This document shows positions 1,819-59,100 of a DNA stretch of 64,000 nt, piece by piece. Where the stretch lies: positions 32,001 to 96,000 of the IMG/VR virus record IMGVR_UViG_3300032321_002024. One strand, 5' to 3'. Source of the DNA: a virus. Taxonomy: Duplodnaviria; Caudoviricetes. Every line of letters begins with the position of its first letter. The first letter of the stretch is position 1. Both the position numbers and the translations under genes were made by a program. The notes under the pieces were generated by a model. It was not told where the DNA came from. It ran no database searches and saw only the letters and a program-made list of their open reading frames with translations.

Positions 1819-2085
1819 TTACTTTTTTAAAAAAATTCTAAGTATTTTTTTTATTCTTCTATAATTTTTTGGTGGTGTATAAATGGAAGAATCAACATCT
1901 CTTATATAAACACCTGGGCTTATATACTTATTACCCATTTTTCCTATGTTATTTTGTTGTGTTTCATTATCTATATGAGCATTGGCATACTGAGACATCC
2001 AGTCAGCTTTTGATCCAGTCATACCCATAGAGCCTAAAATATTAGACCACTTTTTCATTATATCTTTCTTACTTGGTTGTTTCAT
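1819..2085 (-). CDS. Chimeric mini-protein: capsid-N-terminus-like + tail-sheath-N-terminus-like segments + RxxKI tag
   Basis: KKWSNILGSMG...WMSQYANAH, then YISPGVYIRDVD (sheath SPGVY motif), then RRIKKILRIF. Confidence 0.55.
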   Translation of the reverse strand: MKQPSKKDIMKKWSNILGSMGMTGSKADWMSQYANAHIDNETQQNNIGKMGNKYISPGVYIRDVDSSIYTPPKNYRRIKKILRIFLKK

Positions 2086-13728: not shown

Positions 13729-14379
13729 ATGAAATACGTAAAAACATTCGAAAATTTTAATCCTTCTGTTAATGAAGGATGGTTATGGGGAGAAGGAAAC
13801 ATCTTTTCAAAAATTGGTAAGTGGTATTCTGGGTGGAAAAATAAAAAAGCTGTAGAAATGGCTGAGGCTACAAAAAAAATTATGGAAGATCCTGCTAATA
13901 AAGCTAAATTTGCTAAAGTAGAAGAAGAACTCGCGAAATTGCCAGAAGAAGATCTTAAAGAATTGAAACTTAAAATGGAAAATTTCAATCCAGACGTAGC
14001 TGCTGCTAATGCTCCAGAAGGAACTGAAGAAGAATTAAAAGAATTGATTCAAGATTCTGTAAATATTTCTAGAACAAAATATGGAACACCATTATACGAA
14101 TCTAGACTTATTGCAATAAATGAAAATGCTCAATCATTGGGACAAAGGATTTTGAAAGCTTTCGGATTAGCTGCTAAATATTTAGCAATAATACTTGCCA
14201 TAGTTATTGTTCTTGTAGCACTTGGAGCACTAATTAAAATTGCTGCAGGAGCAATAGCAACTGCAGTTGCTGTTGGTAGCGGAGTAAGCATATTCGTTGC
14301 TTGTTGGTCAGCAGCTGTTGCTACAGGATTGACAATTGGTGTTGGAAGAGTTGGATATGGTTTAGCAACTGGTAAATAA
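13729..14379 (+). CDS. Putative virion internal protein with C-terminal hydrophobic hairpin
   Basis: MKYVKTFENF...VNE signal; long Ala/Gly/Ile-rich C-terminus. Confidence 0.6.
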   Translation: MKYVKTFENFNPSVNEGWLWGEGNIFSKIGKWYSGWKNKKAVEMAEATKKIMEDPANKAKFAKVEEELAKLPEEDLKELKLKMENFNPDVAAANAPEGTEEELKELIQDSVNISRTKYGTPLYESRLIAINENAQSLGQRILKAFGLAAKYLAIILAIVIVLVALGALIKIAAGAIATAVAVGSGVSIFVACWSAAVATGLTIGVGRVGYGLATGK

Positions 14380-14808: not shown

Positions 14809-16335
14809 ATGCTTGTAGAAACGCAATATCTATCAAATAGTAAAAAGTTAGTAGTAAGTTATGTTGATAAAACAGGTGATATCAAACTCAAATACTACAA
14901 TTGGGATAATCCCATGAAATATGTAGCTTGTGATGATACTGATGTTCAGAAACATCCAACATTTCGTTCTTGGGATGGTAAATCAGTTAAACAAATTGAA
15001 GTTAATCATCCAGATAGGTATGCAATATATGAGTTTCTCGATTCTTTACCACAAAAAGAAAGAGAAGAAATTTTTGAATTTAATCTACCGAAAATTTATT
15101 TTATAGATATTGAAACTGAAATCGTTGATGGTTTTCCAGAAGCAGCTGATATAAAAGATGCTGCTGGTAATGTCATTAAAGAAGGAGCTTGTACACAAGT
15201 TCTTTCTATTTCAATTGTTTATGATGATAAAATCATACTTCTTGGGTTAAAAGATATGCCTGAAGACATGCAGGAAAGAATTAAAGATAATACTAATAAG
15301 TATTTTGAAAAATTTGGTTCTGATTATAAATTCAAATATGTCAAATACGAAGATGAGTTTGATATGTTATATGCTTTCTTTTATAAGATGGTTCCTAAAA
15401 TGCCACTTCTTACTGGTTGGAACTTCTTGAAATATGACTGGTTGTATTTAGTTAATAGATCTCGTAAAATTAGTAAGTGGGTTAATGGTAAAGAATATAA
15501 AATTGATCCAGCTGTATCATCATTGACAAAAAGAATAACTAAAGCATGGGGAACAGAGTACGAAGTTCCAGCTCATAGAATGATTTTTGATTATATGCAA
15601 CTTTATGAGATTTGCGATACATCTATTAAAGTAAAAGAATCTTCTTCATTGGACTTTGTTTCTAATAAGCTTGTGGGTGTTGAGAAGATTAAATATACTG
15701 GTTCACTTCAAAAACTTTATGAAGATGATTTTGAAACATTTATGTATTACAACGCGGTCGATTCCGTGTTGGTTCAAAAGATACACGAAGCTAGAAACTA
15801 TATCTCTATCATATATGCGATATCATCACTTGCCCAAATTAGAATAGTTGATGTTGTTTCTCAGATGAACAATGCTCTTGGATCACTTGCGATTACAGAA
15901 GGTGTTTTAAGAAATAGATTCCGAGAGATGGATAATATAGTTCTTTTTAGAGATGAAAAGGGAGATGCTGAGTCAACAATTGCTGGTGGTTGGGTAAAGG
16001 ATCCAGTAGTTGGTATGAATCAGTGGTGTGTCACTTATGACTTTGCTTCACTTTATCCAACAACACAGCGTCAATTCTTTATTGCTCCTGAGACATTTAT
16101 TGGTTTACAAGATGAAAAAGATAAATCAAAGTGCACAAATGGTAGAAAAATTGATTCTCAAAAACACGTTCTTTGTGTAAATGGTGTTGTATTTGAAAAA
16201 AGAATTTCACCAACTCTGAATATGCTTGAAGATGTTTATGCTGATAGAAAGAAGAATAAAAAAATCATGATGCAAAAGAAAGAAGAGTTAAAAGAAGTCA
16301 TGGATGAAATAAAAAGATTAGAAGCGGAATTATAA
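14809..16335 (+). CDS. Family B DNA polymerase, N-terminal subunit (exonuclease + motif A; split gp43A-like)
   Basis: DIETE (ExoI), GWNFLKYD (ExoII), YNAVDS (ExoIII), DFASLYP (motif A); ends after first fingers helix, no KxxxNSxYG or DTDS. Confidence 0.9.
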   Translation: MLVETQYLSNSKKLVVSYVDKTGDIKLKYYNWDNPMKYVACDDTDVQKHPTFRSWDGKSVKQIEVNHPDRYAIYEFLDSLPQKEREEIFEFNLPKIYFIDIETEIVDGFPEAADIKDAAGNVIKEGACTQVLSISIVYDDKIILLGLKDMPEDMQERIKDNTNKYFEKFGSDYKFKYVKYEDEFDMLYAFFYKMVPKMPLLTGWNFLKYDWLYLVNRSRKISKWVNGKEYKIDPAVSSLTKRITKAWGTEYEVPAHRMIFDYMQLYEICDTSIKVKESSSLDFVSNKLVGVEKIKYTGSLQKLYEDDFETFMYYNAVDSVLVQKIHEARNYISIIYAISSLAQIRIVDVVSQMNNALGSLAITEGVLRNRFREMDNIVLFRDEKGDAESTIAGGWVKDPVVGMNQWCVTYDFASLYPTTQRQFFIAPETFIGLQDEKDKSKCTNGRKIDSQKHVLCVNGVVFEKRISPTLNMLEDVYADRKKNKKIMMQKKEELKEVMDEIKRLEAEL

Positions 16336-41014: not shown

Positions 41015-41218
41015 GTGAAAAAGTATAAAGTTAAGAGTCTTGTAGTTGATAGTATCAACAATGTATCTTCATATGGTGTAGATATAGAATCCGAACTTAC
41101 TAAAATTTTATCTGAACAAATAGCAAAAGAAATGGATAGAGATATTCTAAGATATTTAGGTGTTGAGCCTGATAGAAATAAACGTAGAATTAATTCCATA
41201 AATAAAATATTCATATGA
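41015..41218 (+). CDS. Mini-protein resembling gp23 major capsid central helix + tag
   Basis: YGVDIESELTKILSEQIAKEMDRDILRYL; ends RRINSINKIF. Confidence 0.6.
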   Translation: MKKYKVKSLVVDSINNVSSYGVDIESELTKILSEQIAKEMDRDILRYLGVEPDRNKRRINSINKIFI

Positions 41219-41785: not shown

Positions 41786-41956
41786 ATGTTTGTCAATCCT
41801 AATAAATTAAATTCTTATCGTAAAGTTTTACGTGGTATTGAAGATAATAATAATGATATTCAAGCAACCTGGACTTTACTTAGATCTATGATAAGAAAAC
41901 AAAAAATCGAAAGAATATATGGAACAAAAAATACAGATAGGAAAGAAAAGTTCTGA
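41786..41956 (+). CDS. Small tagged protein (56 aa, not in ORF track)
   Basis: MFVNPNKLNSYRKVLRGIEDNNNDIQATWTLLRSMIRKQKIERIYG... Confidence 0.55.
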   Translation: MFVNPNKLNSYRKVLRGIEDNNNDIQATWTLLRSMIRKQKIERIYGTKNTDRKEKF

Positions 41957-42191
41957 CTTAGAACCAGGTTATGTTTATGTTCCTTATATCCCAATGACAA
42001 CATCACAAGTTATAGTTGATTATGGTTCTAAAAATATAAGTAGAAAAAGAAAGATTAATAAAATATTTGATTTAGGTTTAGATGTTAAAGATGAATTCTC
42101 ACCAAGTAAATCAATTATGAGTAGATACTCTAAAAAGATAGTGAATAGTAAATATTACGGAACTATAGAAATAAAAAAACCCACTTATTAA
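41919..42191 (+). CDS. Mini-protein resembling gp23 major capsid C-terminus with inserted tag
   Basis: IGKK...EPGYVYVPYIPM...[SRKRKINKIF]...FSPSKSIMSRYSKKIVNSKYYGTI. Confidence 0.65.
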   Translation: MEQKIQIGKKSSDLEPGYVYVPYIPMTTSQVIVDYGSKNISRKRKINKIFDLGLDVKDEFSPSKSIMSRYSKKIVNSKYYGTIEIKKPTY

Positions 42192-58266: not shown

Positions 58267-58328
58267 TAAAAGAGATAATTTTTATGTTTTATATATTGTA
58301 TCTAAATAAGTTTAACTATATTTGTAAT

Positions 58329-58928
58329 ATGAATATATGGTTTACATCAGACAGTCATTACGGACATACAAATATAGCGGGTCCTAAAGTTTCTCGCTGG
58401 CAAAGAGGTTATCGTGATTTTAATAGTGTTTGGGAAATGAATCAATCTCTTATTGATTGTATTAACAAATATGTTAAAGAAGATGATATACTTTATCACT
58501 TAGGTGATTGGAGTTTTGGTGGAATTCACAATATCAAATTATTTAGAGATTCGATTATTTGTCAAAATATACATCTTATTTTAGGAAACCACGATGAACA
58601 TATTGTAGACAAAGAAGTAAAATTTCACGATTCATCATTTAATCCAATTGAACTATTTTCTTCTGTTCAGGATGTTCTACATTTAGAAATAGGTAAAACA
58701 AAAATATTCCTATCACATTATTCACATCGTGTTTGGAATGGAAGTCATAAAGGAGTAATTCATCTTTATGGTCATAGCCATGGTTCTATTCCAGACTTTG
58801 GTCGTTCAATGGATGTTGGAGTTGATGTTGCTTATAGAATGTTTGGAGAATATCGACCATTTAACATAGGAGATATTACCAGAATTATGGATAAAAGAGA
58901 AATTCATCAAATTGACCATCATGCATAA
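58329..58928 (+). CDS. Calcineurin-like metallophosphoesterase
   Basis: SDSHYGH, LGD, GNHD, YGHSH; ATG 58329 after TATATTTG. Confidence 0.9.
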   Translation: MNIWFTSDSHYGHTNIAGPKVSRWQRGYRDFNSVWEMNQSLIDCINKYVKEDDILYHLGDWSFGGIHNIKLFRDSIICQNIHLILGNHDEHIVDKEVKFHDSSFNPIELFSSVQDVLHLEIGKTKIFLSHYSHRVWNGSHKGVIHLYGHSHGSIPDFGRSMDVGVDVAYRMFGEYRPFNIGDITRIMDKREIHQIDHHA

Positions 58929-59100
58929 ATTAAGAAATGAAATGATGAATCTGAAAATTATGATTAATTCCTCTTATGGCATGAGTGGGGTTAGTCTGAG
59001 TCTTTATGATGAAATGTTAAAGAAAAAGAATAAGTTTTTCAAAATACAAAATAGAGTTTTTAAAGTTAAAAGAGTATTCAATGATAATAAAAACAAATGA
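58921..59100 (+). CDS. Mini-protein with PolB motif B + tag
   Basis: LKIMINSSYG; ends NRVFKVKRVF. Confidence 0.6.
   Translation: MHKLRNEMMNLKIMINSSYGMSGVSLSLYDEMLKKKNKFFKIQNRVFKVKRVFNDNKNK

Follow-up and report, generated by a model that had tools for sequence, protein, structure and literature searches.

The window studied here, the whole stretch of 64,000 nucleotides that was analysed, comes from a 262.6-kb contig of a giant freshwater bacterial virus. It carries an operon with a 59-aa mini-gene that overlaps both of its neighbours: a metallophosphoesterase gene runs over its start, and its stop lies over the start of the next gene. The neighbours encode the metallophosphoesterase and a DprA-like nucleotide-binding fold, and the mini-protein itself is very basic. 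The features of the operon are as follows.

58317..58324, + strand: predicted -7 promoter element of the Bacteroidota housekeeping sigma factor (TAnnTTTG), heading the operon
58329..58928, + strand: metallophosphoesterase gene (profile matches, relatives), the invariant upstream neighbour, overlapping the mini-gene start
58921..59100, + strand: gene of the 59-aa mini-protein, a helical hairpin (motif-B helix, loop, tag helix); about 100 homologous clusters, AF2 model, pN/pS < 1
58954..58980, + strand: look-alike of motif B of family B DNA polymerases (PolB), K12-x-x-[IL]-N16-S17-x-Y19-G20, near-invariant in 46 homologues and 13 position-defined orthologues
59053..59079, + strand: C-terminal tag R45-x-x-K48-[IV]-x-x-[IV]-[FY], the F/Y-ending subtype of fragment-bearing mini-proteins

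An earlier note on this DNA had placed KIMINSSYG at 58954-58980 inside a 59-aa ORF without motif C (DTDS), and the coordinates, the motif and the lack of DTDS were all verified in the sequence; KKRY and a thumb are likewise missing from the 59 residues. The note quoted the ORF as ending in NRVFKVKRVF; the length and the tag are as described, but the protein runs six residues further.

We confirmed that 58921-59100 is a real gene under purifying selection. Successive searches recovered 19 close homologues, then 15 representative ones and then 103 homologous clusters, nearly all of 50-66 aa. The pN/pS between diverged orthologue pairs (uncorrected) was 0.17-0.57, and the motif codons show synonymous variation among orthologues. 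Longer or fused forms were not found at E<=10, which is weak evidence; two longer matches, apparently chimeric assemblies, have only the N-terminal 35 residues in common with the mini-protein. Searches for loci by pattern, using the mini-ORF or a close alignment, returned none. There was no meaningful match to a described family in Pfam, PHROGs, NCBIfam, PADLOC or PDB, and no description of the family or its tag was found in the literature searched, which covered few subscription papers. The family is real and conserved, and apparently undescribed. One 52-aa orthologue (L190; LR745206.1 263801-267379) has shed helix 1 for the most part, along with the core of helix 2, while retaining the motif and the tag; this natural minimal version would be useful experimentally.

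The mini-gene co-occurs with a separate gene for the second polymerase subunit in five records (G001, G003, G012, G013 and G038), while no match to it was found in G004, G005, G039 and W01 (465-642 kb), all of which have both polymerase subunits. Moreover, in several lineages the next gene directly follows the phosphoesterase gene and the mini-gene is cleanly missing. Because of these absences and clean skips, the mini-gene is shown computationally to be accessory and dispensable; an essential part of the polymerase would be expected in every genome of the clade.

In PolB, KXXXNSXYG forms motif B and lies on helix P; the triphosphate of the dNTP is coordinated in RB69 by K560 and N564, and the minor groove is read by Y567 (PMC3564110). 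By chance, the strict motif KxxxNSxYG should arise about 5e-5 times in an ORF of 59 aa, and within two proteomes totalling 220,342 residues it was found solely in the mini-gene. Since profile searches could favour matches that keep the motif, we picked orthologues by gene position, taking the ORF directly 3′ of the phosphoesterase gene at 59 loci retrieved with the phosphoesterase alone. K-x-x-[IL]-N-[SA]-x-Y-G was kept in 15/15 family-like ORFs (52-67 aa) of the clade defined in this way, even where the C-terminal half had diverged to 2-10 bits. This is far above chance and marks a genuine, selected motif-B look-alike; the earlier note had named loss of NSxYG among homologues, together with the lack of a predicted interface, as the sign of a chance match, and the residues were found to be conserved. 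Thirteen distinct position-defined orthologues share a median identity of 33% (minimum 24%), and the sole positions conserved in at least 12 of the 13 are M1, L4, K12, N16, S17, Y19, G20, R45, K48 and I49. Conservation is thus confined to the motif and the tag, apart from M1 and L4. The conserved Gln that precedes motif B in PolB and the residues that follow the Gly are not retained in the mini-protein homologues.

How far the likeness to PolB extends was assessed by several searches. With a family profile of the N-terminal half, none of the 76,148 windows of the genome's proteome scored as high as motif B from pelagiphage gp43 or from the second subunit of the clade, a ranking that is partly circular because the profile is anchored on the motif. 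Profile-profile alignment (hhalign) of the mini-protein with PolB covered only about 13 columns (E 0.0044, probability 7.8%), and language-model neighbours with an assigned family were all of the PolB clan (0.80-0.85), which serves as a lead only. PolB was absent from a PDB sequence search with the mini-protein and was not called by standard profile and structure searches. The mini-protein therefore carries a likeness to a conserved surface of a phage core protein, but as a short match only; judged from the sequences, the resemblance is narrow but exact.

One residue of the motif separates the mini-protein from the polymerase of its own clade, which has N-G-[ST]-Y in 52/52 loci (duplicates included), whereas the mini-protein has N-S. 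The N-S form also occurs in the polymerases of MaF61, MA9V-1, pT24, Lak-A2, a T4-like phage and HTVC008M, and on this comparison N-S is the canonical form and N-G the clade's own. The mismatch indicates that the mini-gene is not a recent copy of the phage's own polymerase gene; either the enzyme was altered after the mimic arose, or the mimic follows the canonical form. The mini-protein would have descended from PolB or would mimic it.

AlphaFold2 modelled the mini-protein as a hairpin of helices 2-17 and 24-57 (pLDDT 91), with the motif on the first predicted helix. Hydrophobic residues 4, 8, 11 and 15 of helix 1 lie on one face, and K12, N16 and Y19 lie on the adjacent face. In this model helix 2 appears to shield the seam that in PolB lies under the first fingers helix, and to leave the catalytic face exposed, and the tag would project past the hairpin on the protruding end of the second helix. 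Fold searches with the model (PDB, viral and Atlas) returned generic hairpins alone. A circular permutation, in which helix 2 would replicate the first fingers helix, was rejected, there being no profile match to the first polymerase subunit (E 0.28); the analogy is structural only.

The TAnnTTTG element lies 4 nt 5′ of the phosphoesterase start, and an upstream copy occurs at 22/22 related loci; the -7 consensus of Bacteroidetes is TANNTTTG (PMC6847099). A motif of putative late genes, TAATATATA, found at 52 of 285 genes (30-fold enriched), is absent upstream of the phosphoesterase/mini-gene operon loci. The mini-gene is thus a small accessory gene behind a host-type promoter, and the operon is probably transcribed by host RNA polymerase and probably early, with the timing read from the promoter element.

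The earlier note had also described the tag as shared, and this was borne out. The tag, which reads R-x-x-K-V-x-x-V-F at R45-F53, has R45 and K48 in 46/46 homologues and stands at the end of 25/328 genes in this genome (background 0.7%) and of 52/583 genes in G001. Mini-proteins that carry fragments of core proteins mostly have the F/Y-ending subtype, and three siblings lie in the window.

41015..41218, + strand: tagged mini-protein with a major-capsid fragment (Pfam Gp23 E 6.8e-6; phrog_138 E 4.5e-6)
41919..42191, + strand: mini-protein with a weaker capsid-fragment match (Pfam Gp23 E 0.017) and an internal tag
1819..2085, - strand: tagged mini-protein with an SPGVY segment; no significant profile match, 42-aa counterpart in G001

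Pfam Gp23 matched three mini-ORFs of this record (E 5e-8, 7e-6 and 0.017) and several each in G001, G003 and W01, where they occur beside the full gene. With PHROGs, two tagged mini-ORFs were matched as major head protein and one as terminase (E 0.0034). Other tagged mini-ORFs have, by eye, helicase Walker-B-like or sheath-like segments, and we take the SPGVY segment to resemble tail-sheath N-termini; many tagged proteins show no recognisable fragment. The mini-protein combines a tag, an intact and selected ORF, a block of a core protein and siblings in the same genome, and it is confirmed as a member of a set of tagged mini-proteins that carry capsid and terminase fragments.

Further tagged ORFs were seen elsewhere. 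At G000:156438-156638 (L197), L097, L112 and L113, tagged mini-proteins with a terminase Walker-A-like RQxGKS segment, and neighbours in relatives with helicase Walker-B-like segments, cluster near a sirtuin-like gene. Two tagged ORFs of G001 resemble host proteins: one of those at 420608-420892 and 381137-381388 is acyl-carrier-protein-like by eye, without the attachment serine, and the other is like a Clp ATPase coiled coil (E 0.014 to the phage's own Clp). The tagged library may therefore include mimics of host proteins. A second class of labels occurs genome-wide (window positions 13729, 22029, 42205 and 56836), with N-terminal MKxxKxFExF-like starts resembling the T4 capsid-targeting sequence.

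The window also contains a part of the replicative polymerase.

14809..16335, + strand: first subunit (gp43A-like) of a two-gene family B polymerase, identified by domain matches and relatives; the partner gene is not in this partial record

As the earlier note had stated, this polymerase stops before motif B: its matches extend over the exonuclease and into the PolB domain for the first third, and the ORF ends once the exonuclease, motif A and the first fingers helix are complete. The subunit shares 86% identity with its counterparts in phage records of 642 kb and 635 kb, and the nearest large relative of the record is 436 kb. A second subunit was not found in this record by motif scan, Pfam/PHROG search or tblastn with a relative's gene. 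The neighbours of the second-subunit gene and the full capsid gene are missing as well, which indicates that the lack reflects a partial record. In relatives, the second subunit has a gene to itself, with about 480 codons and some 100 kb away from the first-subunit gene, and begins with a long helix, followed by its own motif B (KLVLNGSYG) and then YADTDS. The gp43B-like (DTDS) gene, which the earlier note had proposed to check for a motif B of its own, thus has both in the relatives.

The second-subunit genes of the relatives show a feature of their own. In 27/46 loci (L226-L277; e.g. L128 in G014, L131 in G040, L132 in G004 and L116 in G013) motif B is broken by an insert of about 35-48 nt, usually with a stop codon, a G/C hairpin (about -18 to -35 kcal/mol) and a codon resembling a take-off codon, at four different positions within the motif. 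From their sequences, these inserts look like translational bypass elements of the T4 gene 60 type or micro-introns. Further large insertions in the gene, in G010 (L121/L126; near DTDS, about 1.6 kb) and in L257-L259, are consistent with an intron, intein or homing endonuclease. In G002 (476 kb), rated 97% complete, the second polymerase subunit was not found; this record is probably incomplete, because CheckV estimates run high for the clade. The presence of the mini-gene did not correlate with interruption of the second-subunit gene.

Given that a catalytic motif is under selection in a small non-catalytic protein, something is expected to bind it; the retention of K, N and Y without a palm or a catalytic site points to a partner that reads this surface. 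Our leading proposal, held tentatively and at less than even odds, is that the mini-protein is a decoy that shows the PolB fingers surface to a host sensor or inhibitor. The accessory mini-gene, probably transcribed by host RNA polymerase, would yield a self-contained hairpin that displays the dNTP-binding face (K, N, S, Y, G) of the fingers helix and bears a docking tag on the protruding end of its second helix. As one member of a library of core-protein fragments with tags, it would occupy a host factor, an immune sensor or an inhibitor of polymerases, by which the invariant surface of motif B is recognised; the tag would pass the complex to a common reader or block its assembly into an active form, and the real polymerase would thereby be protected. 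We infer the timing, the binding partner, the decoy function and the role of the tag alike.

Several findings favour a decoy, including the selection on both motif and tag, the top rank of PolB motif B with the profile, the sibling capsid and terminase fragments, the promoter at all 22 related loci, and the clean presence or absence across lineages. Bacterial sensors are known that detect capsid, terminase, helicase and polymerase (PMC13581612; PMC12931631; Borvo, 10.1101/2022.08.27.505566). However, what most Avs sensors recognise is an entire fold, and a motif of nine residues may give a sensor too little to recognise. The similarity to PolB spans only the short block described above and is missed by standard searches, a decoy of the phage's own enzyme should copy N-G rather than N-S, and many tagged proteins have no recognisable fragment. 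A sensor of family B polymerases was not found described in the literature searched. A decoy with a docking tag is nevertheless, in our tentative judgement, the best single account of the motif, the tag, the siblings, the promoter and the patchy distribution together.

An alternative that we regard as unlikely is a dominant-negative fragment, similar to a microProtein, whose motif helix displaces the N-terminal helix of the second subunit and so regulates the phage's own split polymerase or poisons that of a competing phage. The enzyme of the clade is split exactly between the two fingers helices (for such splits, see PMC3061061), so that the interface would be exposed during assembly, and in having N-S the mini-protein agrees with polymerases from T4-like phages and from other phages of Bacteroidota (MaF61, MA9V-1, pT24, Lak and HTVC008M), which suits a role against competitors. 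However, most of the N-S polymerases compared are not split between the fingers helices, and the Gln before the motif and the residues after the Gly are not kept. Pairing would need the hydrophobic seam, which helix 2 covers in the predicted model in its presumed register, and would not require the catalytic-face residues that are invariant. The covered seam, the invariance of catalytic rather than packing residues and the mismatch of N-S with N-G together lean against pairing with the phage's own polymerase.

Chance likeness is quite unlikely. Under convergence, the K-N-S-Y-G of a tagged protein unrelated to PolB would serve to cap a helix and form a binding patch. A helix C-cap accommodates N-S-x-x-G well, the motif is short, many famous motifs could have matched, and there is no significant HMM or structural match to PolB. 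Against this, five motif residues, including an exposed Lys, are kept at exact spacing at 33% identity, and siblings with the same tag subtype have core-protein fragments that profiles detect.

Also improbable is a ligand sponge or nucleic-acid binder, in which oligomers would bind dNTP-like molecules (e.g. chain terminators or signalling nucleotides) or DNA ends through the basic helix and the residues of the motif. Triphosphate is a native ligand of motif B (PMC3564110), and the basic protein sits between a metallophosphoesterase and a DprA-like fold; however, it lacks acidic metal ligands, and since the capsid and sheath fragments of its siblings are not nucleotide binders, the explanation would not cover the whole class.

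It is hardly credible that the mini-protein is the third subunit of a three-way split polymerase, as the earlier note had suggested, or that it supplies motif B in trans where the second-subunit gene is interrupted: this record lacks a second subunit and 27/46 related loci carry the stop-plus-hairpin insert within motif B, but the record is partial, the whole motif is still encoded across the two sides of the interrupted genes, G001 and G012 combine the mini-gene with an uninterrupted motif B, G004 has an interrupted motif B without the mini-gene, G005, G039 and W01 lack the mini-gene too, and the three-way split is refuted in the relatives because, in five of them, a complete second subunit with its own motif B and YADTDS coexists with a mini-gene that is dispensable and supplies no part absent from the other subunits. 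The remaining probability lies with explanations we did not foresee.

Taken together, the mini-protein is no member of the split PolB and would be an anti-defence mimic, one bait in a tagged library. Should a host protein turn out to bind it, the mini-protein offers a probe, ready to use, for a sensor of immunity or an inhibitor directed at phage polymerases of family B; should it poison the polymerases of rivals, it is a naturally occurring peptide that inhibits PolB. The question of how huge phages conceal their most conserved proteins becomes directly testable through it. It is possible, though we think it doubtful, that huge Bacteroidota phages practise a modular counter-defence, with a bait library drawn from invariant capsid, terminase, helicase and polymerase motifs, each joined to one and the same docking tag, by which host sensors caught on a bait are passed to a single reader that inactivates them, and that the mini-gene is the polymerase bait, which would point to an undescribed sensor of family B motif B.

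Known systems share some of these properties. MicroProteins and other dominant-negative single-domain fragments are small, consist of one element of a larger protein and keep its dimerisation surface; the mini-protein likewise retains a single element of a larger protein, but it keeps the catalytic-face residues and, in the model, buries the packing seam. The capsid-targeting sequence of T4 is a short peptide label found on many unrelated small proteins, as is the tag; however, it is N-terminal, cleaved and late, whereas the tag is C-terminal and here stands behind a host-type promoter, and the phage has a separate class of starts resembling the T4 sequence.

In the split T4-type PolB of phages 133/44RR/31/25/65 (Petrov et al., reviewed in PMC3061061), the enzyme is split at the fingertip, as is the first subunit 14809..16335, and gp43B starts with a helix ending in motif B, as does the mini-protein. 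The mini-protein differs in that its 59 residues are dispensable and tagged, lack the palm, DTDS, KKRY and thumb, and coexist with a complete second subunit. Hosts do sense phage DNA polymerases, which gives a reason for a polymerase decoy: Avs19 senses family A (PMC13581612), and escape mutations from Borvo lie in the proofreading cleft of pol I-family enzymes (10.1101/2022.08.27.505566). These sensors concern family A or pol I-type enzymes, and neither is known to recognise motif B of a family B enzyme. The working model is DSAD1 of phage SPbeta, which imitates the trigger of DSR2 and so keeps DSR2 blocked (PMC10973363). In that case there is one inhibitor, tested and with a defined target, whereas here the target is only proposed, the sequence motif itself is copied, and the protein has a shared tag and a library of siblings; the likeness is that DSAD1 is a small phage protein that imitates a core phage protein, the tail tube, and fills the pocket of the sensor.
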